64,000 bases of DNA, taken from Minisyncoccota bacterium (GTDB lineage: Bacteria; Patescibacteriota; Minisyncoccia; 2-02-FULL-40-12; GWA2-44-9). The notes under the pieces are model-generated. The model was not told the origin of the DNA and ran no database searches. It was given only the letters and a program-made list of their open reading frames with translations. Both the position numbers and the translations under genes were made by a program. Every line of letters starts with the position of its first letter. Within the stretch, counting starts at the first letter, position 1. Positions 2,636 to 62,170 of the stretch are shown here, piece after piece. The stretch lies in the NCBI GenBank assembly GCA_018062285.1, contig JAGOSO010000001.1, positions 32,773-96,772 on the forward strand. Reading direction: 5' to 3'.

Positions 2636-3358
2636 TTAAAGAACATCAATCTGCATAACTCGACCAGAACTAAACTTGTACAATTGAGCTGGTCGCCAAC
2701 GCTGGCCACGACGCTCATTTGCCGACTTCTCCAAGACATCAAGCTTTAATATCTTCTTTCTAAAATTTCTCTTATCCACTCCCCTATCAAGGATAGCCTC
2801 ATAGGCATTCTCGAGTTCAGTTAAAGTAAATTCGTGAGGCATTAATTTACTGATGATGGTGGTAAAGGCAATCTTCGATCTTAATCGTTCAAGACCAACA
2901 GATATAATTTGGCGATGATCATAAGCCAACTTTGGCAAAGCACTCACAGGAAACCACTGAGACACGTCAGAATCTTTTTGCTCTTCTTTTGAAAAACTAG
3001 CCCATGGAGCAAGAGCTAAATAAGCTACTGCAACAACACGGCCACGAGGATCACGCTTAACTTCACTGAAAGTATAAAGTTGTTCCAAATAAATATTTCT
3101 TGGATCAATATGACCTTTGTCTTTTATAATGCGCCTTGTTGCTTCTTCGGCGTTTTCTTCTGGATGAATAAGCCCGCCAGGCAAACCATGAATATTATTA
3201 AAATAGGGCGGAAGGTTAACTGGTATTAAACGAACATACAACATGCCATCACGGAAAGTAAAAAGAACTGTATCCGTAGCGAGAACAGCAAAACGAATCT
3301 TTGATGTTGAATTTTTAGATGTGGCTTTAGTAGTTGCCATATAGAGACATCTTATCAT
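2636..3358 (-). CDS. nrtR: Nudix-domain transcriptional regulator, NrtR family (ADP-ribose-responsive repressor of NAD metabolism)
   Basis: N-terminal Nudix box GLPGGLIHPEENAEEATRRIIKDKGH (Gx5Ex7REUxEExGU). C-terminal ~90 aa is winged-helix-like with NFRKKILKL...RPAQLYKF. Flanked by NrtR-type operators. Probable real start is M7 at 3340; the transcript looks leaderless because the -10 TAAGAT overlaps the first in-frame ATG. Confidence 0.65.
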   Translation of the reverse strand: MIRCLYMATTKATSKNSTSKIRFAVLATDTVLFTFRDGMLYVRLIPVNLPPYFNNIHGLPGGLIHPEENAEEATRRIIKDKGHIDPRNIYLEQLYTFSEVKRDPRGRVVAVAYLALAPWASFSKEEQKDSDVSQWFPVSALPKLAYDHRQIISVGLERLRSKIAFTTIISKLMPHEFTLTELENAYEAILDRGVDKRNFRKKILKLDVLEKSANERRGQRWRPAQLYKFSSGRVMQIDVL

Positions 3359-3367
3359 GTTTCAATC

Positions 3368-3388
3368 TTAGTGTCAATAGTACACTTA
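3368..3388. promoter_or_regulatory. NrtR-type operator (TTAGTGT-CAATAGT-ACACTTA) overlapping the -35 of the nrtR promoter (autoregulation)
   Basis: Palindrome TAGTGT-N7-ACACTA. On the minus strand the site contains TTGACA, then 17 nt, then TAAGAT immediately before the nrtR start. Confidence 0.55.
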
Positions 3389-3393
3389 TCCAC

Positions 3394-3424
3394 ATAAAAA
3401 GCCGCCACGGTGTATTGTGGCGGC
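3394..3424 (-). terminator. rho-independent terminator of the kinase gene (GCCGCCAC-ggtgtatt-GTGGCGGC plus T-run on minus strand)
   Basis: 8-bp GC stem followed by TTTTT on the minus strand (AAAAA at 3396-3400 on plus), directly downstream of the stop at 3435. Confidence 0.6.
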
Positions 3425-6095: not shown

Positions 6096-6845
6096 CTAGA
6101 TGGTCGCCGCAATGTTCTGACTCGGGCCGCCAGTGCCCAGGGATTGGGACTGGCTCGAGACAGACTGCGAAACAAACTGGGCGATTTTTGCCAGCTTGCC
6201 TTTTGTTGCATCACCGGCGTCGATGTATTTCATGCCGGTTTCGGCTTCGAACTTCTCAAGATAGCCCTTGCAAGACTGAGCGTTGATACCAATGAGCACA
6301 CCAACGAGAGATTCAATCTCTTCGCCGACAAGCCCACGGTCCATCTCGTCTTTGACCATGCTGAGCGTTGCGCTTGAAGTGTTGTCGCCTCCGTCGGTAA
6401 TGACGAAAACGATACCGTTGGCCAGAAAGTCCTGGCCCATCAACCTCTTGGCGTAAGCGTTGGTAGCGCCGACCGCCGAGAAGGCAGCATCGTACAGCGG
6501 AGTCCAGCCACCAGTCCGGAAATCCGGATAGGTGTTCGGGTCAATCTCCCCCAGTGGTTTGAATCCGTGAATTTCTTCGATGCTGTTCTTGAACATATCG
6601 GAGAACAACAGGACTCGCAGGAGAAGATTGTTAGAACGGGGCGACTTCTTACACGAATCGACTGCGGCGATAACGCACCGCCGCAGCTCATCCTTGAAGC
6701 CGCTCACCGAGCCACTGACATCAACCGCGATAGTCACGAGCGTGTACTCGGTCGAGGTCAGGTGATCAATACGAACCGCCGAAAACTGGAAGCCTTGCCG
6801 GCCACCAATCTTCGAGGTTTCCGTGCCGTCATTCATTCGGGGCAT
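6096..6845 (-). CDS. von Willebrand factor A domain protein, TerY-like (TerY-P triad vWA)
   Basis: 249 aa. MIDAS motif VDVSGSVSG (DxSxS), then ...GGWTPLYDAA... and ITDGGDN, typical of TerY-type vWA proteins. GAGAGGAGAG RBS. Start is only 13 nt after the stop of the upstream PncA-like gene. Confidence 0.6.
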   Translation of the reverse strand: MPRMNDGTETSKIGGRQGFQFSAVRIDHLTSTEYTLVTIAVDVSGSVSGFKDELRRCVIAAVDSCKKSPRSNNLLLRVLLFSDMFKNSIEEIHGFKPLGEIDPNTYPDFRTGGWTPLYDAAFSAVGATNAYAKRLMGQDFLANGIVFVITDGGDNTSSATLSMVKDEMDRGLVGEEIESLVGVLIGINAQSCKGYLEKFEAETGMKYIDAGDATKGKLAKIAQFVSQSVSSQSQSLGTGGPSQNIAATI

Positions 6846-6858: not shown

Positions 6859-7686
6859 CTACTTCATGAAATCGACAGAGTTCGTGACGGTCATTCCCAG
6901 ACGCGTCATGTCTTTGAGCCACGCACTGGCAATCGCTGGGAAGTCGACGACCCCCGGGATAGCCGGCACAGGACTCATGCAGTCTTCGAGCAGGTGGAAC
7001 TTCTTGATGTGTTCCTGACCGATGTTCTTCGCGATCTGATTGACCGTGGTCAGCACGCAGTGACTGGAAGCTTCGCCGCCAACCAGAACAATGTCGGCTT
7101 CGGCCATGGTGTTCAGGAACTCCGTGTTCAAACCCGTCGAAGGGTCATCGGGGTCAGGAACTTCGGCCATGAGCGCGCCATAGTGTTCGGTCCAGGGATT
7201 CGAGCCCTTGGTCACGTAGTCGACCATGGCGAATTCCTTGTCCGACCAATGCTGAAGTGCTTCGTTCAGAACAGAGTGGACGTTGTGTCCCCATGTTCCG
7301 ATGAGGCAATGCGCCGGCCAGATGCAAATCTGGTACAGACCCGATGCTTCGAGCGTCTTGGCATAGGCCAAGGCACGCGCTCGGAATTGCGGATTGCGCG
7401 TGGTCCAGATTCCGGCTTCGATGTCCGACGCCGAAATGATCGTGAACGGGTTCGGCTGTTTGCCGCGCTGGTCCATCCAGAAAACCGGATGGGCGATGTC
7501 GAGCAGACGATGGCTGTCCAACGTCACGTGGATATCGTCGAGCTTGTGCCCGATTCGATCCACGAGCTTGGCCAACCGCTTCATGTCCGCATCAGCTCCA
7601 GGAACCGGCAACGTCGCGCCGGGGATGTCGCAGAAGTCGTTCTGCGGATCAATCACCAACAAATGCACCTTGAGAACTTTGCTCAT
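6859..7686 (-). CDS. pncA: PncA-like nicotinamidase / isochorismatase-family amidohydrolase
   Basis: 275 aa. N-terminal LLVIDPQNDFC (PncA VDxQNDF catalytic-Asp motif). Also LDSHRLLDIAHP (metal-ligand DxH...H pattern), K in YVTKGSNP, catalytic Cys in GGEASSHCV. First gene of the operon that continues into vWA, PP2C and kinase. Confidence 0.7.
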   Translation of the reverse strand: MSKVLKVHLLVIDPQNDFCDIPGATLPVPGADADMKRLAKLVDRIGHKLDDIHVTLDSHRLLDIAHPVFWMDQRGKQPNPFTIISASDIEAGIWTTRNPQFRARALAYAKTLEASGLYQICIWPAHCLIGTWGHNVHSVLNEALQHWSDKEFAMVDYVTKGSNPWTEHYGALMAEVPDPDDPSTGLNTEFLNTMAEADIVLVGGEASSHCVLTTVNQIAKNIGQEHIKKFHLLEDCMSPVPAIPGVVDFPAIASAWLKDMTRLGMTVTNSVDFMK

Positions 7687-7744
7687 AACTACCTCTTCTT
7701 TCCTTTGTTTGATTGTTAACGAGCTGTCCGTGTCTTATTTGTAC

Positions 7745-7765
7745 ATAGTGTATTTAGTACACTAT
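7745..7765. promoter_or_regulatory. NrtR-type operator (ATAGTGT-ATTTAGT-ACACTAT) near the -10/+1 of the pncA-like operon promoter
   Basis: Perfect 7-bp arms TAGTGT(A)/ACACTA with a 7-nt spacer (GT-N7-AC core). It sits about 45-60 nt upstream of the 7686 start codon. Confidence 0.5.
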
Positions 7766-7790
7766 GAGGGAAGACTAGCAGACCCTTGTC

Positions 7791-7811
7791 TTAGTGTCAA
7801 TAGTACACTTA
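7791..7811. promoter_or_regulatory. NrtR-type operator (TTAGTGT-CAATAGT-ACACTTA) upstream of the pncA-like/TerY-P operon, divergent to ychF
   Basis: Identical to the site at 3368-3388. Contains a TTGACA -35 on the minus strand. Confidence 0.5.
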
Positions 7812-7908
7812 TTAACAGGGGCAGGAGAGGGGATTTAAAAAATCTTTTAGAAATAAATAAAAACTATGACATGGTTGGTTTTTCGTGGTTTTCTGGTACA
7901 ATAAAGGC

Positions 7909-9043: not shown

Positions 9044-9607
9044 CTAGGCCTTTTTGGCTTTGCGAATCCTTTTTGATCTAATGCAACTCGCCACCAACGG
9101 GATTCTGATAGACAGCCAGTCCTTGAAAATGCTCAAGGCTTCCTTCATCGGACTGGCTCGTTCCCACGAGACCGTCTCGACTGCAATGTCGCCTTCAACA
9201 TTCTCAACCAAGTCTTTTAAATAGTACTGGGCCAGCGTCACGACCCTCAGCGCCCGAGTCGCTTCACAGAAAATAGTGATTCTAAAAGTCTCATTTGTTC
9301 CTCTCTGGAGAGAGTTCCTGATGAACGAGCCGGCATCCTTGATATTCTCAGGGGTGGTATAGGAACCCTCAGAGATATAGAAATACTGGCCAAGGTAGGG
9401 GCCATTCTCCATAATGTACTTAAACATCATTCCACCCTCTGACAAGTGGGGGAACTTCGCCCGTTGGGTAAACCCACCGCAGGTAATGGTGTAGAGTGGC
9501 TGATTCTCTTTCAAGAACATGATCACTCGATCCAGATACGGACGAAGCGGTGAATTCAAGTCGCAGCCATACCCACACACAATCAAAATGGTACGTTTGC
9601 CTTCCAC
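9044..9607 (-). CDS. DUF218 / YdcF(ElyC/SanA)-like protein
   Basis: 187 aa. GTG start with GGAGG 6 nt upstream. ILIVCGYG...ITCGGFTQ...SEGGMMFKYIMENG...ISEGSYTTPENI follows the DUF218 pattern (SGG...sEA..m..yl..G....E..S.nT.eN). Confidence 0.5.
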   Translation of the reverse strand: MEGKRTILIVCGYGCDLNSPLRPYLDRVIMFLKENQPLYTITCGGFTQRAKFPHLSEGGMMFKYIMENGPYLGQYFYISEGSYTTPENIKDAGSFIRNSLQRGTNETFRITIFCEATRALRVVTLAQYYLKDLVENVEGDIAVETVSWERASPMKEALSIFKDWLSIRIPLVASCIRSKRIRKAKKA

Positions 9608-9791: not shown

Positions 9792-10253
9792 ATGTCGGAT
9801 GTTCGTAGAAATTACGAGTTAGCTTTTCATATCAATCAAAACTTAGAGGAATCTAAGATTATGTCGATTGCAGATGAAATGAAGAACGAGCTAGTTAAGG
9901 GTGGTGCTACTATCAGTTTTGCAAAAGAACCAGAGCGCCAACGCTTGTCTTACGAGATCAAGCACAATGGTGGAAGTTTCTTTGGCTACATTCAGTTCAA
10001 TATGCCTACTGGTAACGAGGATGACAAAGTCAGCTTGGCAGGCGTCGAGGAATACATTAAGCTTAACAATGATATTCTCCGATCTTTGATTCTCCGCCTC
10101 CCATCAGATGCTCAGAAGAGCCAAGCCTTGGAGCGCCAGTTGAAAGCCAAGGAACGACTCGAAAAGCGGGCCCAAACCACAGCCAAAGCCGCTCCAGTGG
10201 TACCTAATGAGAAGTTGGACAAAGAACTCGAAGACGTTATCGGTAAACTATAA
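9792..10253 (+). CDS. rpsF: 30S ribosomal protein S6
   Basis: RNYELAFHINQNL...RQRLSYEIKH...GYIQFNM fits the S6 N-terminal pattern. First gene of the rpsF-ssb-rpsR operon. A TTGACC-N17-TACTAT promoter sits at about 9679-9707. Confidence 0.75.
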   Translation: MSDVRRNYELAFHINQNLEESKIMSIADEMKNELVKGGATISFAKEPERQRLSYEIKHNGGSFFGYIQFNMPTGNEDDKVSLAGVEEYIKLNNDILRSLILRLPSDAQKSQALERQLKAKERLEKRAQTTAKAAPVVPNEKLDKELEDVIGKL

Positions 10254-10265
10254 CAAACCAAAAAT

Positions 10266-10778
10266 ATGAACCTCAACAAAGTTCTCCTCATTGGTCGACT
10301 AACTCAGGACCCAGAAGCTAAAACAACCCCGAGTGGACAAAATGTTGCAACACTCAACATGGCCACTAACCGAGTTTGGAATGATGCCTCTGGCCGCAAG
10401 GAAGCTACCGAATTCCATCGTGTCGTTGCTTGGGGAAAGTTGGGAGACATTGCTTCTAACTATCTCAAGAAAGGCGCCATGGTCATGATTGAAGGTCGTT
10501 TACAAACTCGTTCCTGGGACGATAAGACATCGGGCCAGAAACGCTACATGACCGAAATCATCGCCGAGAATCTCCAGATGGGTCCTCGCGCCACTGGCGC
10601 AGGGTCTGGTTCATTTGAACCATCAGCTGGCGGATACAAACGCCCAACTGAATCAGCCAGTATGCCAGTTACTAAATCAATCGAAAGTGAAATACCAATC
10701 ATTGATGAGAATGAACCTTTGAACGCCGGCGTCGAAGAAGACGAAATGGCTATCAAAGAAAAAGACTTACCATTCTAA
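10266..10778 (+). CDS. ssb: single-stranded DNA-binding protein
   Basis: OB-fold N-terminus MNLNKVLLIGRLTQDPE...HRVVAWGKL..., Gly-rich linker, and an acidic C-terminal tail ending DLPF. Confidence 0.85.
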   Translation: MNLNKVLLIGRLTQDPEAKTTPSGQNVATLNMATNRVWNDASGRKEATEFHRVVAWGKLGDIASNYLKKGAMVMIEGRLQTRSWDDKTSGQKRYMTEIIAENLQMGPRATGAGSGSFEPSAGGYKRPTESASMPVTKSIESEIPIIDENEPLNAGVEEDEMAIKEKDLPF

Positions 10779-10806
10779 AAAATAAATTTAAAAAATACTA
10801 AACAAC

Positions 10807-11016
10807 ATGCACTGCAAACTTTGCGAAGACAATATTGGTCACATCGACTACAAGAACACAAAATACTTGCGACCTTTTGTTACCGCTCAATTCAAAATCG
10901 GCACATCTAAGCGCAATGACCTTTGTGCCAAGCACCAGAGAATGATTGCCAACGCCATCAAACTCGCCCGCTTCATGGCCCTCATGCCATACACCAGAAA
11001 CCAGACAGTTAAGTAA
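10807..11016 (+). CDS. rpsR: 30S ribosomal protein S18
   Basis: 69 aa: CKLCEDNIGHIDYKNTKYLRPFVTAQFKIGTSKRNDLCAKHQRMIANAIKLARFMALMPY is the canonical S18. Confidence 0.85.
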   Translation: MHCKLCEDNIGHIDYKNTKYLRPFVTAQFKIGTSKRNDLCAKHQRMIANAIKLARFMALMPYTRNQTVK

Positions 11017-11029
11017 GTCTGGACCTTAA

Positions 11030-11066
11030 AACAATAAGACCCGCAACTTGGCGGGTCTTATTGTTT
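11030..11066 (+). terminator. terminator after rpsR (AACAATAAGACCCGC-aacttg-GCGGGTCTTATTGTTTT)
   Basis: Long perfect stem plus T-run. Confidence 0.6.
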
Positions 11067-11077
11067 TAAATAATTAA

Positions 11078-11112
11078 AAAGCGGGCAGCTGGAGGAATCT
11101 CCAGCTGCCCGC
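11078..11112 (-). terminator. terminator of the 11122..12312 gene (GCGGGCAGCTGGAG-attc-CTCCAGCTGCCCGC TTTTT on minus)
   Basis: 14-bp perfect stem followed by a T-run on the minus strand. Confidence 0.6.
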
Positions 11113-11121
11113 AACTTCTGC

Positions 11122-12312
11122 TCAACCCCACCTGGCTTCTTTGTCGAGAGGGATGAAGTATGCCACTGACACCTTCGAGGTGAGTCGCCTCGCTCGTCCG
11201 GTATCAATGATGACTCGGTCGCCTTTCGACGGGTACCACCGATGGCTACGATCGTCGAACACATACTTATCCCCGTGGATCGTATTCGCCGCCATCTGAC
11301 GCACGGTACCCCTGGTCTTGTGCTGGAATGAATCCTCATAGACCAGGCCGGTGTTGTAACCAGCCCTGAAAAGCCTCTCGTAAAAGTATTCCCGAGAGGC
11401 ATCCCAGCACCATGTGGACTGCAGATCCTTCTCGCCCGCCTTGATGGCGACCATGAAAAGCGTCATTCCAGGAAGCTTTTCGAGGATGCCTCGACCCGTT
11501 GCTCGATGAGGATCAAGAACGTTCTTGAACACCAGATCGACTGCGAGCTCACAGAGGAGAGTCGTGTTGTTGCCGTCTGCCGCAACCCGAGACACGATCC
11601 GCGCCTTCTCGTCGTTCTGGATGCGAACGAAGTGTCCGAACCCCAGACAGCGAAGCGAAGTGAGGTGTTCCGCCGCCGCCTTGCAGATCTCGACCACCGA
11701 TTCTTCGTCGAGACGCGTTTTGATGTTCTGTTGGTAGCGCAGAACACTGGTCGGAGCCTTGCGGGCCGCCATCAGCATGAGATCTTTCAGCGTGGCATCA
11801 TCAAAGATACTGCCATCTGAATTCGTCGTGCCGAGATCAAGACCGCGCGCGAGGAAGTCGTCCAACATGTTGGAGCATCCCTCGCGAACAACAATCTTGT
11901 CCAGTCGAGCATAGATCATGCCCGCCAGATCTTCGCGAGCAATCCCCGACTCGAGTCCTGCCGCTGCCAGGCCGAGATAGGCGTAGTTGAGACCCAAGTA
12001 GGCCTCACGAACCAACTCGACGCGACGGTCAACCGGCAAAAGGGTGATGAACCCACCTGACAGCGCCGCCCGCACGAAGTGACCGACATCCAGATGATTC
12101 CTCAGAAACACCATCGGATCGATGTCGCCGACCGTAAAGACGTCGGCGTAACGAGGACGGTTATAGTTGAACAACCAGTACGTGCCGACGGAATCTCTCA
12201 CCATGATCTCATCTTCCGTACGGACGGCCTGGCTGAGAAAATCAGCGGTGAGAGTTTTGGAAGCCCAACGGGCCTCCAGCTCAGCGAGCATCTTCTTCGT
12301 GGCTTCAGTCAT
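11122..12312 (-). CDS. hypothetical protein (396 aa), higher-GC accessory gene; shares a 5-prime leader element with the SemiSWEET-like gene at 62171..62458
   Basis: Start set at ATG 12312 (MTEATKKMLAELE...) because GGAGG lies 4 nt upstream. The track ORF's earlier M at 12339 lies upstream of that RBS. I recognise no domain. Predicted helical, about 55% GC against about 43% in core genes. Confidence 0.5.
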   Translation of the reverse strand: MTEATKKMLAELEARWASKTLTADFLSQAVRTEDEIMVRDSVGTYWLFNYNRPRYADVFTVGDIDPMVFLRNHLDVGHFVRAALSGGFITLLPVDRRVELVREAYLGLNYAYLGLAAAGLESGIAREDLAGMIYARLDKIVVREGCSNMLDDFLARGLDLGTTNSDGSIFDDATLKDLMLMAARKAPTSVLRYQQNIKTRLDEESVVEICKAAAEHLTSLRCLGFGHFVRIQNDEKARIVSRVAADGNNTTLLCELAVDLVFKNVLDPHRATGRGILEKLPGMTLFMVAIKAGEKDLQSTWCWDASREYFYERLFRAGYNTGLVYEDSFQHKTRGTVRQMAANTIHGDKYVFDDRSHRWYPSKGDRVIIDTGRARRLTSKVSVAYFIPLDKEARWG

Positions 12313-12391
12313 AGATCCTCCGACGTGCCCTATTAGCACGGTGAGTTAGCGAAATCCAGGTACCGCCTGGCGCGGATCTTACGTTTTCTTG

Positions 12392-12451
12392 GGTTGTTAA
12401 AGAAACCAACCTTGTCTTTATATTATATCATAAAATACACCAAAAAGTCAA
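12392..12451 (-). promoter_or_regulatory. promoter (TTGACT-N18-TATAAT) plus conserved palindromic leader element GGTTGGTTTCTTTAACAACC just downstream of the -10
   Basis: On the minus strand: -35 at 12446-12451, -10 at 12422-12427, palindrome GGTTG-N10-CAACC at 12392-12411, followed by AAAAC GTAAG. The same arrangement recurs at 62506-62564. Confidence 0.55.
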
Positions 12452-12475
12452 TGGCAATTTTGTCTTAAAATCTGT

Positions 12476-12517
12476 ATTAAAAAAGCCCGCAACACGGGTT
12501 ACCATGCGGCGGGCTTG
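12476..12517 (-). terminator. terminator of the 12542..13033 gene; member of a repeated terminator family (AGCCCGCCGCATGGTAACCCGTGTTGCGGGCTTTTTT)
   Basis: Hairpin plus T6 on the minus strand. Similar core ACCCGTGT(T/G)GCGGGC to the terminators at 13132-13170 and 61876-61917. Confidence 0.55.
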
Positions 12518-12541
12518 AAAGTGTGCAAGATAAATCACCAG

Positions 12542-13033
12542 CTAGATCATGTCGATGAGCGAGTCGATGGCCTGAGCCCCCTGGGGCTTACTGGCACCTT
12601 TCTTTGAGGTGCGCCGATCCATCTCTTCCCGAGCCCAGACAAGCAGTCTGTGCATCTCTCCGTAAATCTCAGAGGCCTCTTCAAGATCGATGAGCTCGCC
12701 TGTCCGGCTGGCACCGTCAATCTTGTCGACTTGATCTTCAAGGGTATTGAGGATGTCATCGTGATAGTTAAGGTCGTAGAGCTGGGTCAACTTCTTTTCA
12801 AAAAACTTCGGAGAGTTGCGGAAAAAAACCGCAATAATCTTCCGAACGTCAGCATTGATCTTTACCAGAATCTTGATAGCGCCCGACTCGTCGTTGTTCC
12901 TCTTGAGAGCCCCGGCCCTCTCCAGCTCTTTCTTGATTCCATCGGGCATAACGAAACCCTGAAAAGACTGAGAAAGAACCACCACCGACCTGACCATGGT
13001 CGTCGCCTCTTCTAACGTAAATTGATCAGCCAT
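12542..13033 (-). CDS. hypothetical protein (163 aa), own promoter and terminator
   Basis: GGAGG RBS. Promoter TTGACT-N16-CATAAT at 13080-13107. No recognisable domain. Weak similarity (LVWxRE segment) to the next gene's product. Confidence 0.45.
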   Translation of the reverse strand: MADQFTLEEATTMVRSVVVLSQSFQGFVMPDGIKKELERAGALKRNNDESGAIKILVKINADVRKIIAVFFRNSPKFFEKKLTQLYDLNYHDDILNTLEDQVDKIDGASRTGELIDLEEASEIYGEMHRLLVWAREEMDRRTSKKGASKPQGAQAIDSLIDMI

Positions 13034-13131
13034 CTAAAGCCTCCGGATATAAAGCACAAAAAAAAAGCACAACTCTTGTATTATGGCGTAATAAATAAAA
13101 AAGTCAATAGATACTTATATCTTATTCTGTA

Positions 13132-13170
13132 TTAAAAAGGCCCGCCACACGGGTCGCCGATGGCGGGCCT
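13132..13170 (-). terminator. terminator (GGCCCGCCATCGGCGACCCGTGTGGCGGGCC plus T5), repeated family
   Basis: Near-identical to the terminator at 61884-61916 (GGCCCGCCACGCGGCGACCCGTGTGGCGGGACC on minus). Confidence 0.6.
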
Positions 13171-13192
13171 TTGTGTTGGCGGGCTTGTGAGA

Positions 13193-13624
13193 CTACTTCT
13201 GCTCCATGATCTCGAGCACTTTGTCCAACATCTCTCGACGCGACCGAATCGCAGCGAGATGCCCTTCTTTCTTTCTCTCTGCTTCCTGAAGGACCTTCCG
13301 GAGGGCAAGGAGAAGATCTTCGAGAATGGCCTCTCGCCAAACAAGAGGCTGAGCCTTGAAGTTGTCCATCTCGTCCAGCGACCCGAACTCGCCGGTACGG
13401 TCGACAACAAGTCGGCAATACTCGTGGTGGGGTAGCGGCATCAACACAATAACACGATGCCCACTTGCCGTCAGCCGGTCGATGTACTTCGCAATTGGCT
13501 TAATACTGCCAACCAGCTCAGTGATCATCCGGCACGCTTGATCAACGAATGAGACCTCGTCGGGCCCCTCGAGTTCACTCAGCCTGACTTTCAGGTCTGT
13601 AGCGAAACTGTTGGTCGTAACCAT
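13193..13624 (-). CDS. hypothetical protein (143 aa), own promoter and terminator
   Basis: GAAGGAA RBS. Promoter TTGACT-N18-TATAAT (-35 13722-13727, -10 13698-13703). The terminator-promoter junction is about 80% identical to the one at 12420-12500. Confidence 0.45.
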   Translation of the reverse strand: MVTTNSFATDLKVRLSELEGPDEVSFVDQACRMITELVGSIKPIAKYIDRLTASGHRVIVLMPLPHHEYCRLVVDRTGEFGSLDEMDNFKAQPLVWREAILEDLLLALRKVLQEAERKKEGHLAAIRSRREMLDKVLEIMEQK

Positions 13625-13754
13625 TGTCAGTTCCTTCGATTTTCAATGAGCGAATTTGCTCACGGAAGCCCTATCTCAAGAGCTTCAACGTATTTATATT
13701 ATAGCACAATATATGCCAAAAAGTCAATAGTAATTTTACCTTAAAATTTGTATT

Positions 13755-13846
13755 AAAAAAGCCAACCATACGAGATCCACATGGTTGATCGAGGATCCAA
13801 AAGAAAGGCTATTTAAAAAATAAAACGCCGCGCATTTCGCGCGGCA
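13755..13846 (-). terminator. two consecutive terminator hairpins downstream of the 13907..14191 gene
   Basis: GCCGCGCG-aaat-GCGCGGCG plus TTTTATTTTTT at 13814-13846. CAACCATGTGGATCTCGTATGGTTG plus T6 at 13755-13789. Confidence 0.55.
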
Positions 13847-13906
13847 CCTTTGACCCCCAAGGCTAGGAATCCTCTTTTACGTAGAAGGATACAAACACGT
13901 AACGCA

Positions 13907-14191
13907 CTACCTCATCAAAGCACTCGCTCGAAGGCCGGACGACATTCCGTCGGAGAAAACCCTGGCAATGAGTCTTTCGATCTCGCGGCCAATGCTTCCC
14001 TCGTGCTCGATATTCACTGCCGCGATTGCGCAGAGCGCGTCCATCGCCTCACTTTCAATCGAGATAAAGTGGATGACCCTTTCGCCTCCACCGGCCTCGT
14101 CCAACTGTGCCTGAACTTCCTCACGACTAGAACAGCTCGTGATTGAAGCTTGGACTTCCGAACCCCCAATCGCAGAGAAGTAGATCTTCAT
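13907..14191 (-). CDS. hypothetical small protein (94 aa, MKIYFSAIGGSEV...), translationally coupled to the upstream gene
   Basis: Its ATG overlaps the stop of the 14188..14550 gene in an ATGA arrangement. Looks like a small alpha/beta protein. The track ORF's longer N-terminus is ignored. Confidence 0.4.
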   Translation of the reverse strand: MKIYFSAIGGSEVQASITSCSSREEVQAQLDEAGGGERVIHFISIESEAMDALCAIAAVNIEHEGSIGREIERLIARVFSDGMSSGLRASALMR

Positions 14192-14550
14192 GACCGCTCC
14201 TTGTTTGAGAAGATGATCACTCCACGCTCTAACGGGAAGGCGAAACATTCTACTTTCGGACTAATCGTCTTGGCCATCTTGCCGATCTTGGCCACGAAAC
14301 CATCCAAATGGGCCGGATTCTTCTCCGCGAACCAATGGGCTTCCTCGGACCAAATCTTAACCATGTAAACGCCACAGTTAAGGAAGTTCACCGCCATCGC
14401 GAGCGGACCCATCCATACAGACGGTTCACCGTGCCGGCCAGAATCATTGATGGCAATGACAGGGTTCTCACCCTCTCGAACCATCACCGTCTGGACACCG
14501 TCACTCTGGATGAGAAGCTTACCTCTTTCGGCACCTGATGTTTTCCGCAT
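14188..14550 (-). CDS. hypothetical small protein (120 aa); paralog of the 73-aa product at 61930..62152
   Basis: GGTGGAG RBS. N-terminus MRKTSGAERGKLLIQSDGVQTVMV resembles MRVIFEDSQWLIQIDSTGDLSIL in the other protein. Promoter TTGACT-N18-TATAAT (-35 14647-14652, -10 14623-14628). Confidence 0.45.
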   Translation of the reverse strand: MRKTSGAERGKLLIQSDGVQTVMVREGENPVIAINDSGRHGEPSVWMGPLAMAVNFLNCGVYMVKIWSEEAHWFAEKNPAHLDGFVAKIGKMAKTISPKVECFAFPLERGVIIFSNKERS

Positions 14551-14654
14551 CTTTTTTCTCCACCCGTTAAGGGCATCGTTCGCTCAGGATTGAGACGAAC
14601 TAGGACTTACGCTAACCATGCTATTATACAACACAAATCCCCATTAAGTCAATA

Positions 14655-14680
14655 GTAAAAACAGCACCCGCTTGGGTGCT
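14655..14680 (-). terminator. recA terminator (GCACCC-aagc-GGGTGC TGTTTTT on minus)
   Basis: Hairpin plus T-run immediately downstream of the recA stop. Confidence 0.55.
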
Positions 14681-14693
14681 GTTTTTACTAAGA

Positions 14694-15782
14694 TTATTCT
14701 TTCTCCTCTGCGTCCGGTGCCATAGTGACTGGAGCGACTTCTTCAGAGGCGGCGGCGGCGCGAACTTTGGTGACAATCTCGTTCATAATTTTTGGATTCT
14801 CCTTGAGGAACTGACGAGAACCTTCAATCCCCTGACCAATCTTTTCACCGTTGTAGCTGAACCAAGAACCAGCTTTAACCACGACACCATAACGAACACC
14901 GGCATTTACAACATCAGCGTATTTAGAAATACCTTCGTTGTAGAGAATGTCGAATTCGCAAGTACGGAAAGGTGGGGCAACTTTGTTTTTAACAATTTTA
15001 ACTTTAGTGCGATTGCCCACAATCTTTTCACCAGATTGAATCTGGGCAGAGCGACGGATTTCAATACGAACAGAAGAATAGAATTTCAAAGCCATACCGC
15101 CAGTAGTGGTTTCTGGATTACCAAACATGACACCAATCTTCATGCGAAGCTGGTTGATAAAGATAACGGTAGTCTTTGATTTAGCAACAATAGCAGTGAG
15201 CTTACGCAAAGCGTGAGACATCAAACGAGCCTGAGTACCCATGTGCTGTTGATCCATTTCACCCTCAATTTCAGCGCGTGGAGTTAAAGCGGCAACAGAG
15301 TCGATAACGATAACATCAACGCCACCAGATTTAACCAAGGACTCAACAATGTCTAAAGCTTGTTCGCCTGTATCTGGCTGAGAAATCAAAAGCTGATCAA
15401 TTTTAACGCCGATTCTTTTTGCATATTCAGGATCCAAGGCATGCTCAGCATCAACATAAGCTGCAATGCCACCCTGCTTTTGGGCTTCAGAAACAATATG
15501 CAAACAAAGAGTAGTTTTACCAGAAGATTCCGGACCATAGATTTCGATCACACGACCACGAGGAACACCGCCAACCCCCAAAGCGATATCGAGTGACAAC
15601 GAACCAGTCGGAATAACATCTATATCAACCTTGCTAACTTCACCCAATCTCATGATTGAGCCCTCGCCATATTTCTCCTGTAATTCCTTGACCATCATCT
15701 CGACATTCTTGCCACGACCCTCTTGGACCTTGGCTGATGCCGACTTTTTATCTTCTTTTTCTGAGTGTTTTTTTGTTGCCAT
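14694..15782 (-). CDS. recA: recombinase RecA
   Basis: 362 aa with canonical RecA segments: [33 protein letters not shown] (Walker A), [10 protein letters not shown], and others. Confidence 0.95.
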
Positions 15783-28588: not shown

Positions 28589-28702
28589 GTCTGGCGGCTA
28601 CCTACTTTCGCTGGATGAGTCCAACTATCATGGGCCTTAAGGGATTTCACTTCTGAGTTCGGGATGGGATCAGGTGGGACACCCTTAGCATAGCCACCAA
28701 GC
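28589..28702 (-). rRNA. rrf: 5S ribosomal RNA
   Basis: Minus-strand sequence GCUUGGUGGCUAUGC...GUCCCACCUGAUCCCAUCCCGAACUCAGAAGUGAAAUCCC...GCCGCCAGAC matches the conserved 5S core (CCGAACUCAGAAGUGAAA) and helix I. Confidence 0.9.
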
Positions 28703-28796: not shown

Positions 28797-31700
28797 TTAC
28801 TCAAAATTATGACTGTTTAGTAGCTCTTGGCTGAGCACCTCGCGGTGCGTACACCTAAGCCCTATCAACCTCGTAATCTACAAGGAGTCTAAGAAATCTA
28901 ATCTTGGGGCCCGTTTCGTACTTATATGCTTTCAGTACTTATCGGCACCGAACATAGCTACCCAGCGCTGCTCTTGGCAGAACAGCTGGCAGACCAGAGG
29001 TTCGTTCATCTCGGTCCTCTCGTACTAGAGACAACCCCCCTCAAATTTCAACGCCCGCACCAGATATGGACCAACCTGTCTCACGACGGTTTGAACCCAG
29101 CTCGCGTACCCTTTTAATTGGCGAACAGCCAAACCCTTGGGGCCTTCTTCAGTCCCAGGATAGGGCGAGCCGACATCGAGGTGCCGAACACTGCCGTCGC
29201 TGTGAACGCTCGGGCAGTACTAGCCTGTTATCCCCGGAGTAGCTTTTATTTGTTGATCTTCGCCCCTCCTACGAGGTAGCGTCGGTTCACTAAGTTCTGC
29301 TTTCGCATCTGCGCGACACATCCGTCTTGCAGTTAAGCTGGCTTTTGCCTTTACGCTATCGTTCCGATGTCCATCCGGAACTAGCCAACCTTGATAAACG
29401 CCTCCATTACTCTTTAGGAGGCAAGTGCCCCACTTAAACTGCCTGCCAGGCACTGTCTCGATAACACCCTAACAAGGTGTAACAAATAAAAATCTAAAAT
29501 CACTCCAACTAAATTAGTACAATAATGCACTATTTAGTATTACCAGAGTTCACTTTAGCTTTTTATGTTTCACCCTCTTAGGGTGCTACCGGTTAGAGCT
29601 ACAAATCGTTAAAATGGGTGTTTCATTGGCGGATCCATCGGGCCCGAGAGCACGACTTCAAATCCTCCCCACTACGCTACGTATAACAACTCGTAGACCA
29701 ATACCAAGCTGCAGTGAAGCTTCCGGGGTCTTTCCGTCTAGGTGCGGGTAGTCGGCATCTTTACCGACATTGCATTTTCACCGAGCTATTGGCTGAGACA
29801 GTCCCCCAGTCGTTCCGCTATTCATGCGCGTGGGAACTTACCCCACAAGGTATTTCGCTACTTTTAGACAGTTATAGTTACTGCCGTCGTTCACCGGCGC
29901 TTCGGGCCTCCCCAGTACATCTTGCGACATACCAGTTCAACCGTTAACGTTCCGGCACCGGACAAGCGTCACCCCGTATACATCGCCTTGCGGCTTAGCA
30001 CGGAGTTGTGTTTTTGATAAACAGTCGCCAGGGGTTCTTTCGCTGCGGCCCCCATCATCTTGCGATGAAAAGGGCAGGCCTTATACCGAAGGTACGGCCG
30101 CTTTTTTGCCGAGTTCCTTAGCCAATAATCACTCGTTCGCCTTAGTACACTGATACTAGTCCACCTGTGTCGGTTTTGCGGTACGTTTCCAATGTTGATA
30201 ATCTTAGAAGTTTTTCTTGGAAGCGTGCTCAGTTGAATTTCGTCTTGCGACAATTCGTAAGGCGCTCGGATGTGTCTTGCGACTGGACGTGGATTTTCCT
30301 GCGTCCCACCCTCACGCTATACCCGTTAAATCCGATTATACGGTCAACCTACAACTCTCCGTCACTCCTTCGATCAACACTGGAGGGCCAGAATATTAAC
30401 TGGCTGTCCATTATGATCGGTGGCCCTAAAGCCACCTTACACTTAGGCACGCCTAACCCTCCGATGATTGCCATCGCGGAGGAAACCTTGGACTTACGGC
30501 GGTGATGGTTTTCACATCACATGCGGTTACTCATCCCAACATTCTCCCTTCTCAACGCTCCAGCAAACTTCACAGTTCACCTTCACAGCAGTTGAGAATG
30601 CTCCCCTACCACTCGTACAAGTAAATGTACGAATCCACAATTTCGGTATTATGCTTAGCCCCTATACATTTTCGGCGCACATTGCCTCTCCGTCTTGCGA
30701 CGGAATCGAGTAGTGAGCTATTACGCACTCTTTAAAGGATGGCTGCTTCTAAGCCAACCTCCTACCTGTCTAAGGCAACGAACTTCCTTTTCACTTAGCA
30801 TAAATTTTGGGACCTTAATTTGTGATCTGGGCTGTTTCCCTTGCGTACACGAAGCTTAGCCCTCGCGTACTCACTGGCATAGATTTCATGAAGGTATTCG
30901 GAGTTTATTTGGTAGGCCTACCATTGCTGGCACGGCTAACCAATTAGTGCTCTACCCCCTTCATTACTCCATACCGCTGTCCCTAAAGACATTTCGGGGA
31001 GAACCAGCTATTACCAAGCTCGATAAGCTTTTCACTTCTAACCACAAGTCATCCGATGACATTGAGCGATCAAACGGTTCGGGCCTCCACTTATCTTTCG
31101 ATAAGCTTCACCCTGCTCATGGTTAGCTCGCCTGGCTTCGGGTCTTACCTATACCGCATAAAGACATTTCACCTATAAGCCCTAAAGCTTGTAGGTGAAA
31201 GTTCTTAAACGCGCTATTAACACTCGGTTTCCCTGTCCATACGTCCCAGTGGAACTTATAGTGCGGTGTAAGTAAACTCGTCGGGTCATTCTTCAATAGG
31301 CACACCGTTACCCGACGTCTTGCGACGGCAGGCTCCGGCTCTTTGTAGGCACACGGTTTCAGTTTCTATTTCACTCCCCTCGCCGGGGTTCTTTTCGCCT
31401 TTCCCTCACGGTACTGGTTCACTATCGATCACGAATAGTATTTAGCCTTATCCAGTAGTATGGACAAATTCACCCCGGACATTCTTATCCTGGGCTACTC
31501 AGGTAACAATACAGAAGTTCGTTTGGTTTCGGATACAGGACTGTCACCTGCTATGGTCGGCTGTTCCAAGGCCGTTCTCCTACCGCACGAATTTTTAACT
31601 TCTTATGAAGTTTTAACTCCACGCACGATGTGTCTGCGCGAAGTTAAAATTTCAAGTGTACTATCCCTATTACCCCACCCTCATTTTAGTAAACTAATTT

Positions 31701-31982
31701 GAAAATGGTTTAGGCTGTGCCGCTTTCGCTCGCCGCTACTCACGGTATCTAATTCTATTTATTTTCCTTTGGGTACTGAGATGTTTCACTTCCCCAAGTA
31801 TGCTTCCTGCTTGCGCAGAATAATCATGGTTCACATGATTGGGTTGCCCCATTCGGACATCTCCGGGTCATAGCTTGCTCGACAGCTCACCGAAGCTTTT
31901 CGCAGTCACGCAACGTCCTTCATAGCCTATTCGTGTCAAGGCATCCTCCGTGCGCCCTTTAATGTGGTCATTTTGCTTGACC
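28797..31982 (-). rRNA. rrl: 23S ribosomal RNA (about 3.2 kb; includes an AT-rich roughly 110-nt expansion segment near 29465-29580)
   Basis: The 5-prime end GGUCAAGCAAAAUGACCACAUUAAAGGGCGCACGGAGGAUGCCUUGAC is at about 31982. Domain V sequences are present (GGAUAACAGGCUAGUACUGCCCGAGCGUUCACAGCGACGGCAGUGUUCGGCACCUCGAUGUCGGCUC). The 3-prime helix-1 partner is near 28797-28815. End coordinates are approximate to about 15 nt. Confidence 0.85.
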
Positions 31983-34678: not shown

Positions 34679-36925
34679 TTAGGCGAGTCGGATAAGTCCG
34701 AGAACTTTTCGGCGACCAGCATACAAGGCAGACGACAACAATCCACCAAATCCAGCTAAGGCAAAAGCATCAGCAGGTCCAGTTTTCACATGCAAGGCAT
34801 TAGCTAAAACTTGATTGCCGATTGTAATGTAAACTGGATTTGAAGTTATGGAGCCAGTGTTATCAGCACGGGTTGTTGCAGTATTAACCAACTGTTGATT
34901 AAGTGAAACACCTGCATTGATGGTGGCATAGAATTTCATCTCGGCCTTTTGGCCTGAAGACAAACTTCCGATATTTAAGCCACCAGAAACAATACCATCA
35001 GTCGTAACAATATTATTTAATGTTGTACTGTGAGCAGTGTAAGTCATCCCAGCAGGCAAAACATCGGTAACAACAACATTATTTAAGTTTGTGTTGTAAG
35101 GGGCAACGACAGTAATAGTGAATTCGATACCATCACCTGCATGTGCTCCAAAAGATGTACTCTCGACATTATTACCAGCAGAAATATTACGGCCAGTCTT
35201 TTGAATTGTTAGAGCGTTTGAAACTACGTTAGCGAGCGTGACTGAAGCAGTGTCAGTTACCGTTGTCGCATTACTTGCATAAGCCGAGGCGCTATTAGTA
35301 AGGGTAGCGTAACCATAGTTATACTGGTTGTATCCCTGACCAACCGTAGCTCTAAAACGAAGTGTAACAGAGCGAGTTGGGTAGAATGTACCAAGACTTA
35401 AGCCACCAGAAGTTAATCCGTCAGCCACATAAGAATAGTCATTAGTGGTACTACCTGAGACATATCCCAAACCATAAGGAAGGGTGTCCGTGACTCTAAC
35501 GCTGTTTGCATTCTCGTAACTAGCATTGGAGACGCGGAGAATAAATTCTACGGTATCACCAACTTTCGCATTAACTGATTTTGACTCACTTGAATTCGAT
35601 GTAATATTTCTGACGGTCTTTGTAATATTTAGGGTCGAAGTTAGATCCGTAACAATACATGGGCCAGTTACATAAACAACTGTGTTTGCGGAAGCGTAAC
35701 CACTTGGATAGCCATAGGCGGTAGCAGTATAAGTTGTGGTCTGAGAAGGGGTCACAGTCCTGCTTCCACTTAGAGCCACGTTACCCAATGAGCTTACAGA
35801 AACCTGAGAAGCATTCTGGGAAGACCATGCCAAAGTGGCTGACTGGCCAATACAGACTGAAGCTGGGCTGGCTGAAATAGAAACTGTCGGAGTTGGTGTT
35901 GGTGTTGGTGTTGGTGTTGGAGTTGGAGTTGGAGTTGGGGTTGGAGTTGGTGTCGGAGTTGGAGTTGGTGTCGGAGTTGGAGTTGGTGTCGGAGTTGGAG
36001 TTGGTGTCGGAGTTGGAGTTGGTGTCGGAGTTGGAGTTGGTGTCGGAGTTGGAGTTGGTGTCGGAACAAAACCACACAATTCACCGCCACCGTACTTAAC
36101 ATCAAATACTCTTCGGCCAGCAGAAGCATAATCTGGAGGAGTTAATGGGTAACCTTCAATCAAATCAACTTGATAGCGACAAGCTGGAACACCAACAACT
36201 AATACATTCGTATCTATAGTTTGATGAGGGTTTAAAGTTACGGTTTTAGAATCAAACAATGTTTGGGTAGAAATCCAATCAGATCCAAGACTAAACATTT
36301 TGTAAGAAACTAAACTAACAGTATAAGTACAATTAGAAGTATTAGTGATGCGTCCAGTTGCAGTTGTAGAACCAGCTGAGACAACAGAGCCAACAACATT
36401 ATCAATAACCGATCCGGTACAAGTTGGAGGAGGAGTTGGGGTTGGAGAATATGTTGGGGTTGGGGTTGGAGTTGGAGTCGGTGTTGGAGAATAAGTTGGG
36501 GTTGGGGTTGGGGTTGGGGTTGGAACACCACAAGCATTACTACGAACAGTTCGAGAATCCAAAACAGTAGAATCACTTGAAACAACCAAGCGATACTGAC
36601 AATCAGGAACGTTGATGTGTAATTCTAAGCTTTCAAAAGGACCAACAACAGTAGAAGCAGAATCGTAATGGGAATTGTTTGATGTGAGATAGTCATCCAT
36701 TGCCACATTAAAAGAACAAGCCGAGTTGTTAATAATTATACCCAAAGCGCCACCACCAAATTCACCAGTGGAAACGATTGATGCGGTCAAGGCTGACTGG
36801 GGGCCCCCACAATCCTCCGTACTAGCCTTAGATAACTTCATTACTGAAAAAGTAACAGTAACAGCTAGAGCAACAACTAAAGTTGCCTTAGTAATTCTGT
36901 TCATATTTGTGTTGTTCATATTCAT
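34679..36925 (-). CDS. large secreted cell-surface protein with (TP)n linkers and C-terminal sortase-type sorting signal
   Basis: Signal peptide [36 protein letters not shown] (start taken at M23 of the track ORF 34679..36991). Contains a roughly 40x TP repeat and DUF11-like repeat domains. C-terminus [28 protein letters not shown] has a xKTGP motif, a hydrophobic helix and a basic tail. The sortase gene is adjacent. Confidence 0.6.
35880..36075. repeat. tandem nucleotide repeat (period 6/18, GGTGTCGGAGTTGGAGTT...) encoding the (TP)n linker
   Basis: Direct inspection shows about 30 consecutive GTTGGNGT(T/C)GGA units. They are in-frame inside the surface-protein CDS, and the out-of-frame track ORFs there are artefacts. 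Confidence 0.85.
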
Positions 36926-37039
36926 ATTTTTTGTTTTAAAACCCCTTATTTTTATTGATTTTATTGACTGTTTGCGACTAATATAGCCCATTCGATACAG
37001 GATAATAATAACATAACAGGCCTTATTCTGTCAAGCCCC

Positions 37040-57217: not shown

Positions 57218-57252
57218 ACGGGTTGAGCGCTTACGTGCTCAACCCGTTTTAG
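57218..57252 (+). terminator. bidirectional terminator (AACGGGTTGAGCGCTTACGTGCTCAACCCGTTTT)
   Basis: Perfect 13-bp stem. Serves rpmB on plus and the 57249..57506 gene on minus. Confidence 0.6.
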
Positions 57253-57506
57253 TACTTCACGATCCACTTCAGGAACTGAGTGGCCGACAAATCCGGCCAG
57301 ACCACCGATGCCTGCTGACACTCACGAATGAGAGCCTGCTGACAACGGGTAAACATCTTGCGAGCTTCTTCAAGCCCCCCAGATTCCTTCTTGAACGTTG
57401 CACGGTTCTGCGCCAACAAAAGTTCGTGCGCAGCATCACACAAGTTCTTCCAAAATGGGGCGAGTCGCGCATTGCGCTCGCAAATCTTTCCGAACCGAGA
57501 CAGCAT
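57249..57506 (-). CDS. hypothetical protein (85 aa), second gene of a two-gene higher-GC operon
   Basis: AAGGGAGGG RBS 5 nt upstream, immediately after the stop of the 57521..57991 gene. No recognisable motif. Confidence 0.4.
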   Translation of the reverse strand: MLSRFGKICERNARLAPFWKNLCDAAHELLLAQNRATFKKESGGLEEARKMFTRCQQALIRECQQASVVWPDLSATQFLKWIVKY

Positions 57507-59402: not shown

Positions 59403-59488
59403 AAAACCCTCCTTATCCTGACAAGAAAGAACCGTCCAACTCGCAAATACTATCACATAAAATCAAAAATCAAAACGAGCAAAAATAT

Positions 59489-61917: not shown

Positions 61918-61929
61918 TCGTGCTGCGGG

Positions 61930-62152: not shown

Positions 62153-62170
62153 TTTCTCTCCTTCTGCGCC

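Follow-up and report, generated by a model that had tools for sequence, protein, structure and literature searches.

A five-gene islet between recA and rpsR

The window considered here is the whole 64,000-nucleotide stretch of Minisyncoccota bacterium DNA that was analysed (assembly GCA_018062285.1, contig JAGOSO010000001.1, positions 32,773 to 96,772), and in the gap between recA and rpsR it carries an islet of five predicted genes whose putative promoters and terminators lie in junctions that are homologous to one another. The islet (11017-14693, approximately 3.7 kb) is flanked on one side by the genes for S6, SSB and S18 and on the other by recA-ftsK-rpoC-rpoB, while the rest of the window consists of core genes, including rpoB/C, ftsK, a ribosomal protein operon and 23S/5S rRNA. 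Transcription on the minus strand runs in the order recA, p120, p94, p143, p163, p405 and converges on the plus-strand genes rpsR, ssb and rpsF (9792-11016). The conserved upstream flank, recA (14694-15782, minus strand), belongs to a 90% identity cluster named recombinase RecA. The conserved downstream flank, rpsR (10807-11016, plus strand), is convergent with recA and encodes ribosomal protein S18, which is 91% and 84% identical to the S18 proteins of the related loci L081 and L091, respectively, the L091 gene having the Pfam domain Ribosomal_S18 on record.

All five islet genes are located on the minus strand. The first, p120 (14188-14550), encodes a 120-aa ORFan with an isoelectric point (pI) of 8.6 and a G+C content at third codon positions (GC3) of 0.62. 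It is preceded by a Shine-Dalgarno sequence, GGTGGAG, that was rated good, and is translationally coupled to p94 (13907-14191), an acidic 94-aa ORFan (pI 4.8) whose start overlaps the p120 stop by 4 nt (ATGA). These are followed by p143 (13193-13624), a 143-aa ORFan with a GC3 of 0.65 and the Shine-Dalgarno sequence GAAGGAA, and by p163 (12542-13033), a divergent short member of a small family of helical proteins confined to Patescibacteria. The last gene, at 11122-12312 and of 396 aa, for which we use the label p405, encodes an alpha-solenoid with a C-terminal beta domain, to which no function is assigned; it belongs to the same islet, although it had been missed in the initial annotation of the array. 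A bidirectional terminator predicted at 11081-11112 (14-bp stem, -32.5 kcal/mol) is common to p405 and rpsR. The five proteins (11122-14550) correspond exactly to MBP9821874-878, the hypothetical proteins KBC81_00260-00280, and in the case of p143 the NCBI annotation comprises only 111 aa. An independent Logan contig covers 10987-14816 at 99.84% identity and hence includes both borders of the islet, which excludes a chimeric contig or assembly artefact.

Predicted promoters, terminators and duplicated junctions

Judged by sequence match, the promoters of the islet are near-consensus and of the sigma-70 type. A promoter scan located TTGACT-N18-TATAAT, with 11 of 12 consensus matches, at 14652-14623, 13727-13698 and 12451-12422, predicted to drive p120-p94, p143 and p405, respectively, together with TTGACT-N16-CATAAT (10 of 12 matches) at 13107-13080, predicted to drive p163. 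Two of the four, in the junction copies termed A and B below, have a TG-extended -10 box. In total the region contains 11 promoter-like sites, compared with 5.3 +/- 1.8 in shuffled sequences. Stable hairpins followed by U-tracts are found after recA, p94 (two), p143, p163, p405 and p73, with folding energies of -24 to -38 kcal/mol and z-scores of -3.8 to -8.4. The putative intrinsic terminator of recA (14653-14690, minus strand) has a 17-bp stem (-27.4 kcal/mol, z-score -8.4) and a U-tract that enters the -35 box of the p120 promoter, and an orthologous hairpin is located 3' of recA in both L091 and L081. The first of the terminators predicted after p94 (13822-13850, minus strand) comprises a 13-pair stem and a U-tract. 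The view of the initial annotation that each unit possesses a near-consensus promoter and a terminator of its own is therefore borne out at the level of these signals, from which promoter and terminator activity are predicted.

The junctions between units are repeated, all on the minus strand. Copy A (12412-12519), upstream of p405, combines a terminator-family copy (12471-12519) with a promoter module (-35 box 12446-12451, TG-extended -10 box 12422-12427). Copy B (13689-13788), upstream of p143, has a diverged terminator hairpin (13762-13788) and the same module (-35 box 13722-13727, TG-extended -10 box 13698-13703). Copy C (13072-13184), upstream of p163, contains a terminator-family copy (13126-13184, hairpin of -28.4 kcal/mol) and a promoter module with its -35 box at 13102-13107 and CATAAT as the -10 box at 13080-13085. 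A weak copy D of the promoter module alone (14614-14670; TTGACT 14647-14652, TATAAT 14623-14628) precedes p120-p94. The distance from the end of a module copy to the start of the gene that follows it (p405, p143, p163 or p120) is 66-100 nt.

Copies A and B are 82% identical over 83 nt (12414-12496 versus 13690-13772; blastn E 4e-19 within the window), with a local-alignment score of 54 compared with 9.9 +/- 1.7 in dinucleotide-type shuffles (z-score 26.7), and copy B was recovered by an nhmmer profile of the promoter module with an E value of 4e-18. This identity extends beyond the consensus elements to 30 nt upstream of the -35 box, the spacer and the terminator loop. Copy C (13072-13147) is 75-76% identical to both A and B, with a z-score of about 12. 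Copy D is more distant, with z-scores of only 4.7-5.8 against A and B and an nhmmer E value of 7e-8. The homology of the junctions described in the initial annotation thus survives both proper alignment and a blastn search of the window. The profile revealed no further copy in the 64 kb beyond a marginal match at the 23S rRNA promoter, which has an extended -35 element, CTATTGACT, in common with the islet promoters, and no other 150-nt tile of the window rose above background when compared with the junction. Since nothing similar exists among the other tiles and promoters of the 64 kb, we ascribe the similarity of the junctions to duplication and not to a general promoter consensus.

The terminators form a family of three copies, at 12471-12519, 13126-13184 and 61872-61931, the recurrence 48 kb away being as first proposed; the copy C terminator is 83% identical to 61863-61931 over 70 nt (E 2e-10). 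When IMG/VR was scanned with exact patterns of the promoter and terminator modules, there were 3 and 0 matches, respectively, and JGI metagenomes gave a single match; all were AT-rich chance matches with no extended similarity. A literature search with the hairpin sequence returned nothing relevant. A match to the Rfam family Bp2_287 at 13135-13293, which overlaps the terminator and the 3' end of p143, scored 30.8 bits against a gathering threshold of 70 and is regarded as spurious.

The small islet proteins

None of the five islet proteins has a match in Pfam, PHROGs, PADLOC or NCBIfam, even at lenient thresholds, which agrees with the absence of recognisable domains recorded in the initial annotation. 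Similarly, PADLOC-DB 2.0 gave no families for any of the eight proteins searched at E <= 0.1. Amongst 5.8e9 protein clusters p120 matched only itself, and it has no phage match. For p143 and p94, searched in narrower sets, no homolog was found in related loci or phage records, nor for p143 in IMG/VR viral contigs. Searches of phage and plasmid records with the islet DNA (blastn) and with p405, p143, p94 and p120 (tblastn) were likewise negative.

All-against-all blastp of the islet proteins gave nothing below an E value of 0.2. Since the four small proteins are mutually unrelated, only the regulatory junctions have been duplicated and not the genes, and the earlier picture of duplicated small-gene cassettes that expand and diversify is not supported. 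The paralogs of p120 that had been suggested at 61930-62151 and 59178-59456 also disappear on closer comparison, with no blastp match at E < 100 and word size 2 and none by phmmer. The possibility that p143 is a diverged duplicate of p163 was considered separately and rejected, as hhalign against the p163 family gave a probability of 0.3%.

Only p163 amongst the four small proteins has distant relatives, and these are found elsewhere in the fetched loci, as stand-alone genes in other variable spots. The family comprises 16 members of 190-213 aa, restricted to Patescibacteria and lacking Pfam domains. The AlphaFold2 model of p163 is entirely helical, with a predicted local distance difference test score (pLDDT) of 83; assignment of a function from the fold was attempted and abandoned, as there was no Foldseek match at E < 2. 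Comparison with two independent Logan assemblies of the same population revealed six single nucleotide polymorphism (SNP) sites in p163, all in third positions and all synonymous (6/6), which is direct evidence that p163 is under purifying selection. The proteins encoded by p143, p120 and p94 are identical in an independent strain-level assembly; this identity is not informative on selection because no SNPs fall within them. The family of 16 members and the synonymous SNPs establish p163 as a real gene, as do 54 representative homologs and a confidently predicted fold for p405. Conservation of the small open reading frames (ORFs) in relatives, by which the initial annotation had proposed to judge them, was observed for p163 and not for p120, p143 and p94, which have no homolog in related loci.

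The distribution of strain SNPs is itself uneven. All of those within islet genes lie in p163, the remaining coding sequence of the islet (about 2.6 kb) having none, and the only other two are located at the end of rpsR and just after it. Either a local recombination tract or a relaxed constraint on synonymous sites may account for this clustering. The p163-family genes of other Patescibacteria (L093:7716-8000, L094:7785-8000 and L095:7729-8000) are preceded by a different, conserved long leader, in which a TTGACAAAA..TATAAT promoter is accompanied by a small hairpin where the transcript starts, an upstream ORF of 5-6 codons and a long stem, GCAGAAGAG...CTCTTCTGC, enclosing TTCAGGTAATCCTGCCTGAT. 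This leader is absent from p163 in the window.

The recA-rpsR spot in related genomes

Loci from relatives were retrieved by exact-protein look-ups; a scan of contigs with RecA, which is too conserved for this purpose, gave 80 loci from many phyla, with L001 the only one of even remote use. Synteny is maintained for rpoB-rpoC-ftsK-recA // rpsR-ssb-rpsF-ychF, with variable content in the recA-rpsR gap. In L081, with a RecA that is 94-96% identical, the gap is about 94 nt and contains a single bidirectional hairpin, whereas L221 (RecA 95%) has one unrelated 97-aa gene at this position, and in L091 (RecA 89%) recA is followed directly by a p405 homolog, a 145-aa gene and rpsR. The five genes of the window are thus extra DNA by comparison with these relatives, and the content of the gap differs in each of four related genomes, so that the description of this spot as a hotspot for accessory genes is well founded. 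No homolog of the four small proteins was found in any relative's recA neighbourhood or beside any of the fetched p405 homologs.

The intergenic region between recA and the p405 homolog in L091 shares with the window the recA terminator, a ATTGACTTTTT..TATAAT promoter and a GGTTGGTTTCTTTAACAAC leader that is alignable with copy A. As L091 carries the same promoter and leader as copy A, we consider that the promoter and leader of p405 are the ancestral residents of this spot. The four small genes are situated between recA and the p405 promoter.

The composition of the islet is also atypical. The five islet genes have GC3 values of 0.62-0.67, and those of the SemiSWEET operon described below are 0.60-0.74, compared with 0.39-0.46 in recA, ftsK, rpoB, rpoC, ndk and EF-Tu. 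Homologs of p405 and p163 in four other genomes have GC3 values of 0.75-0.82, compared with 0.40-0.64 in their neighbours; as the excess persists in these genomes, high GC3 is characteristic of the p405 and p163 families themselves and more than a mark left by recent transfer.

Genes rich in GC3 form a broader class in the window, at 1378-2412, 6096-6845, 9044-9607, 11122-14550, 52064-52936, 57249-57506 and 61930-62458, and are found also in L081, L091, L092 and L097. Values for this class are 0.56-0.74 in the window and 0.75-0.83 in the homologs of relatives, compared with 0.28-0.46 in core genes. The excess persists amongst homologs that are just 25-46% identical, for which simple recent transfer is no explanation, and all of the tested window genes with a GC3 of at least 0.55 lack a Pfam domain.

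The p405 family and its structured 5' leader

The 54 representative homologs of p405 include a best match of 46% identity, and there is no sequence match in Pfam or the PDB. The alpha-solenoid and C-terminal beta domain are modelled with a pLDDT of 92.9. Upstream of p405 lies a predicted structured leader (12310-12377, minus strand), made up of two hairpins, 1 and 2, and a CUC/GAG helix in which the Shine-Dalgarno sequence is paired. Equivalent leaders of 62-77 nt precede p405 and all six other homologs for which contexts were fetched (L091:7938-8003, L092:423-489, L096:114-187, L097:5942-6003, L098:1009-1076 and L099:131-207), the proteins being 25-46% identical and located in different genomic contexts. 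Hairpin 1 has the form CC[AGG]CGGnnCC[UGG] with AU/GC/CG/UA covariation, and hairpin 2, variable and covarying, is enclosed by a helix between a conserved CUC(A)CC and the GAG of GGAGG, the Shine-Dalgarno sequence. It is possible that an invariant CCGC located 5' of hairpin 1 pairs with the loop GCGG to form a compact (H-type) pseudoknot with CCRGG/CCYGG.

A covariance model built from six sequences detects the leader at 7/7 loci, exclusively upstream of p405 homologs and nowhere else in about 200 kb, with scores of 58-75 bits or, for the untrained seventh, L099, of 26.5 bits (E 2e-5). Pairing is observed in 89.9% of cells compared with 73.5% in shuffles (0/500 of which reach this value), slid controls giving 28-48%, and compensatory changes are found in 7/13 pairs (1/500 shuffles), in statistics that derive from seven sequences in an alignment fitted to the model. 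Rfam 15 has no match at 12310-12377, either at E <= 1 or at the gathering threshold. The leader, in which the Shine-Dalgarno sequence is masked, looks like a translational control element specific to this gene family and may serve autoregulation or respond to a ligand.

The sequence of hairpin 1, CCGCRCCRGGCGG-NNN-CCYGG, also occurs in at least 120 viral contigs of IMG/VR (L101-L180), for example at L151:7741-7761 and in L128, L160, L149 and L135, the last with 3 copies. Most of these matches are located 9-28 nt upstream of the start of an ORF on the same strand, and they precede several unrelated ORF families. On viral contigs the covariance model matches the hairpin alone (17-31 bits). This could be a widespread 5'-UTR or terminator hairpin, or in part a GC-rich chance occurrence.

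Modules shared with the SemiSWEET operon

A distant unit on the minus strand (61872-62541), 48-50 kb from the islet, is assembled from the same modules. It comprises a leader copy (62492-62541), a SemiSWEET gene (62171-62458), a 73-aa ORF (61930-62151) and the third terminator copy (61872-61931), with PQ-loop and MtN3 Pfam matches and GC3 values of 0.74 and 0.60. The leader module of p405 (12378-12427, minus strand), which consists of the -10 box and the 5'-proximal first 40 nt of the leader and contains GGTTGGTTTCTTTAACAACC, is 86% identical over 50 nt to 62492-62541 upstream of SemiSWEET (E 4e-11), a similarity that had escaped notice initially. The start of both leaders features an imperfect dyad, GGTTG-N10-CAACC (GGTTGGTTTCTTTAACAACC), that is conserved upstream of the p405 homolog in L091. 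This dyad may represent a common operator or RNA element that links p405 with SemiSWEET.

Proposed origin of the islet

On balance we favour the view that the array is a lineage-specific accessory islet in a hypervariable recA/rpsR spot, moron-like in character, that was wired by local reuse of a promoter and terminator. The older resident would be p405 with its own promoter and structured leader, as its homolog directly follows recA in a relative, and four unrelated genes of atypical composition (p120-p94, p143 and p163) would have been placed later between recA and p405. The expression signals of the newcomers would have arisen by local duplication of one segment of the resident, of about 110 nt, comprising a terminator hairpin, a U/T-tract that may double as an AT-rich upstream (UP-like) element, an extended -35 box, CTATTGACTTTTT, and the -10 box TATAAT. 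Duplication may have proceeded from the resident copy by recombination between junction copies or by their slippage. Each unit would as a result be insulated and monocistronic (bicistronic in the case of p120-p94) under a strong housekeeping-type promoter, and pieces of the terminator and leader would have been reused at the SemiSWEET operon, 48-50 kb away. It is most likely that the islet proteins have a dispensable, niche-specific accessory role.

Several observations weigh against this view. We found no genome in an intermediate state, for example with p405 and one or two of the small genes, and consequently the order and number of the insertions and the direction of copying can only be inferred. 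The block could have arrived whole from an unsampled donor that already possessed the repeated junctions. Copy D, upstream of p120, is barely closer to the module than is a generic promoter of this genome, and, of a contig that measures at least 170 kb, the 64 kb of the window were scanned for module copies. The GC3 excess is not simply a mark of recent transfer, since homologs elsewhere share it. Finally, p143, p94 and p120 have no homolog in the sets searched, and their status as functional genes is argued from the presence of Shine-Dalgarno sites, from the composition of the frames and from the way in which they fit between a promoter and a terminator.

Comparison with known systems

The duplicated junctions resemble putative mobile promoters (PMPs), defined as non-coding sequences, 50-100 nt long, whose copies within a genome are at least 80% identical and precede non-homologous genes (Matus-Garcia, Nijveen & van Passel 2012, PMC3488235; PMC3575422). 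PMP families are small, typically with 2-4 copies, and have been ascribed to duplication by homologous or non-homologous recombination (PMC3488235; PMC3575422). This definition covers the leader module, at 86% over 50 nt, as well as junction copies A and B, which are 82% identical over 83 nt. Copy C, at 75-76%, does not reach the threshold, nor does copy D, and both are counted only as diverged members. The islet family is similar in size, with 2-4 copies, its downstream genes are non-homologous, and its copies lie close upstream of gene starts (66-100 nt). In contrast to PMPs, the islet repeat includes the terminator of the upstream gene, the host belongs to the candidate phyla radiation (CPR), and three to four tandem copies are clustered in 2.3 kb, each supplying a different newcomer gene.

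Morons of phages were reportedly described by Juhala et al. in 2000. Their hallmarks are extra DNA, deviant GC content, an own promoter and terminator, and location in a phage ('The moron comes of age', PMC3594210). The islet exhibits three of these four (extra DNA, deviant GC and a predicted promoter and terminator of its own). It is located outside any phage or prophage, however, with no PHROG match and no phage DNA or protein match, and its promoters seem to have been copied from one already resident in the chromosome, not carried in with the genes.

Chromosomal integration hotspots, or genomic islets between conserved core genes, are a general concept in comparative genomics. The recA/rpsR flanks fit this concept in that they enclose differing contents (none; a 97-aa gene; a p405 homolog and a 145-aa gene; five genes). 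The spot differs from typical hotspots in being very small (0-3.7 kb) and in lacking a tRNA, an integrase and a flanking att repeat.

Alternative explanations

The alternative that survives best, although we regard it as unlikely, is that some of p143, p120 and p94 are non-functional, either as decaying remnants or as chance ORFs in GC-richer DNA, so that part of the islet is a graveyard of duplicated regulatory DNA. Stop codons are fewer in GC-rich DNA, the NCBI annotation of p143 extends to just 111 aa, p120 lacks a homolog in a large protein database and related loci contain no homolog of any of the three, with p143 and p94 having been searched in those loci and the phage collection, and p143 in IMG/VR also. 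Each of these ORFs nevertheless fills the space between promoter and terminator exactly and has a Shine-Dalgarno sequence at the right distance, the GC1/GC2/GC3 pattern resembles that of coding sequence and agrees with the one in the verified p163 and p405, and the coupling of p120 with p94 is precise. The proteins are identical in the independent strain-level assembly, although in the absence of SNPs selection is not readable from this identity.

A rather improbable alternative is that the units are self-contained mobile cassettes of promoter, gene and terminator, captured singly at the junction in the manner of integron cassettes or morons from a phage, plasmid or CPR-wide gene pool. Every unit is autonomous by prediction, the junction repeats are direct and flank every unit, and 48-50 kb away a further GC3-rich operon is bordered by copies of the terminator and leader modules; moreover the p405 and p163 families appear in differing contexts between genomes, always GC3-rich, and the spot differs in every relative examined. 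The islet further resembles an integron in its tandem, similarly oriented, unrelated small ORFans with recurring hairpin-bearing junctions. The hairpins, however, are terminator-like with U-tracts and show no sign of an attC role, and a promoter is predicted for every unit, whereas integron cassettes are mostly promoterless. An integron array would adjoin a tyrosine-recombinase integrase gene (intI) with a Pc promoter and attI. There is no integrase, transposase or phage gene beside the array, and no recombinase or integrase was seen within 10 kb on either side (which contains ribosomal proteins, SSB, YchF, recA, ftsK and rpoBC), no systematic search having been made elsewhere in the window. 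The scans of IMG/VR and JGI metagenomes for the module patterns gave chance matches only, the DNA and proteins show no similarity to phage or plasmid records, and relatives possess the p405 promoter without the upstream part of the module.

Functions of a toxin-antitoxin (TA) or defence type had been suggested initially, but we consider it quite improbable that a TA or anti-phage defence module is formed by the islet or even by the p120/p94 pair on its own. The pair resembles a type II TA system in that the genes are small and adjacent, overlap by 4 nt, encode a basic and an acidic protein and have a single, strong predicted promoter and a single predicted terminator within a variable accessory spot. 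Their translational coupling is the sole TA-like trait to have emerged, however. No toxin, antitoxin or defence domain was matched in Pfam, NCBIfam, PADLOC or PHROGs even at lenient thresholds, and phage and plasmid matches are also lacking; TA and defence genes are typically widespread and patchy, whereas p120 has no homolog amongst the 5.8e9 clusters, and the order of basic first and acidic second is not the common antitoxin-toxin order. It is highly improbable, and already disfavoured, that nothing was duplicated and that the junctions are convergent because all strong promoters and terminators of this organism are alike, for although the extended -35 context CTATTGACT recurs at the 23S rRNA promoter, TTGACTTTTT..TATAAT at the SemiSWEET promoter and in L091, and stereotyped TTGACAAAA..GCC..AAAAAG..TATAAT promoters in related genomes, the identity extends over non-consensus positions with z-scores of 12-27 against dinucleotide shuffles and no other promoter or terminator in the 64 kb exceeds background.

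Other features of the window

A second repeated motif in promoter regions, AGTGTACTATTGACACTAAGA, is present at 2599-2627, 3366-3394 and 7789-7817 (and at 7720-7760). It is an inverted repeat, AGTGT-N7-ACACT, that overlaps a -35 box and is 93% identical upstream of the unrelated genes 2636-3358 and 6859-7719, the upstream region of the latter containing a second dyad, AGTGTACTAAATACACT, downstream of the first. The motif looks like the operator of a small regulon.

In a minus-strand region that takes in 28797-31965 and 28589-28701, the 23S rRNA spans 3169 nt compared with a model of 2925 nt, which suggests an insertion or intervening sequence. A protein gene, and not 16S rRNA, is situated directly upstream of the 23S promoter, and the rRNA operon appears to be split. 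Both 23S insertions and split rRNA operons are common in CPR bacteria. Within the 770-aa ORF at 34679-36991 (minus strand), the segment 35844-36554 consists of long imperfect tandem repeats with 6/12/18-nt periodicity (GTTGGA/GTCGGA); these imply a low-complexity repeat protein that is probably exposed at the surface.

Implications

It is conceivable, though improbable, that the junction acts as a recombination substrate for integrase-free, RecA-dependent gene capture in CPR bacteria. If so, circular or linear DNA with a junction copy would integrate at a resident junction by homologous recombination, and arrays of promoter-equipped ORFans would be drawn from a CPR-wide GC3-rich mobile pool that includes the p405 and p163 families, each with conserved leaders of its own.

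As a case of regulatory DNA reuse the islet is clear but fairly ordinary, and it reveals no new defence or toxin system. The structured leader of p405, as a candidate new cis-regulatory RNA from an uncultivated lineage, is together with the GC3-rich orphan genes a more promising lead than the array. The array would nevertheless provide a compact example of how a reduced genome may wire newly acquired genes by copying one terminator-promoter segment, adding CPR bacteria to the organisms in which promoter reuse has been documented, and it would identify the recA/rpsR gap as a place in which to seek strain-specific genes in this group.

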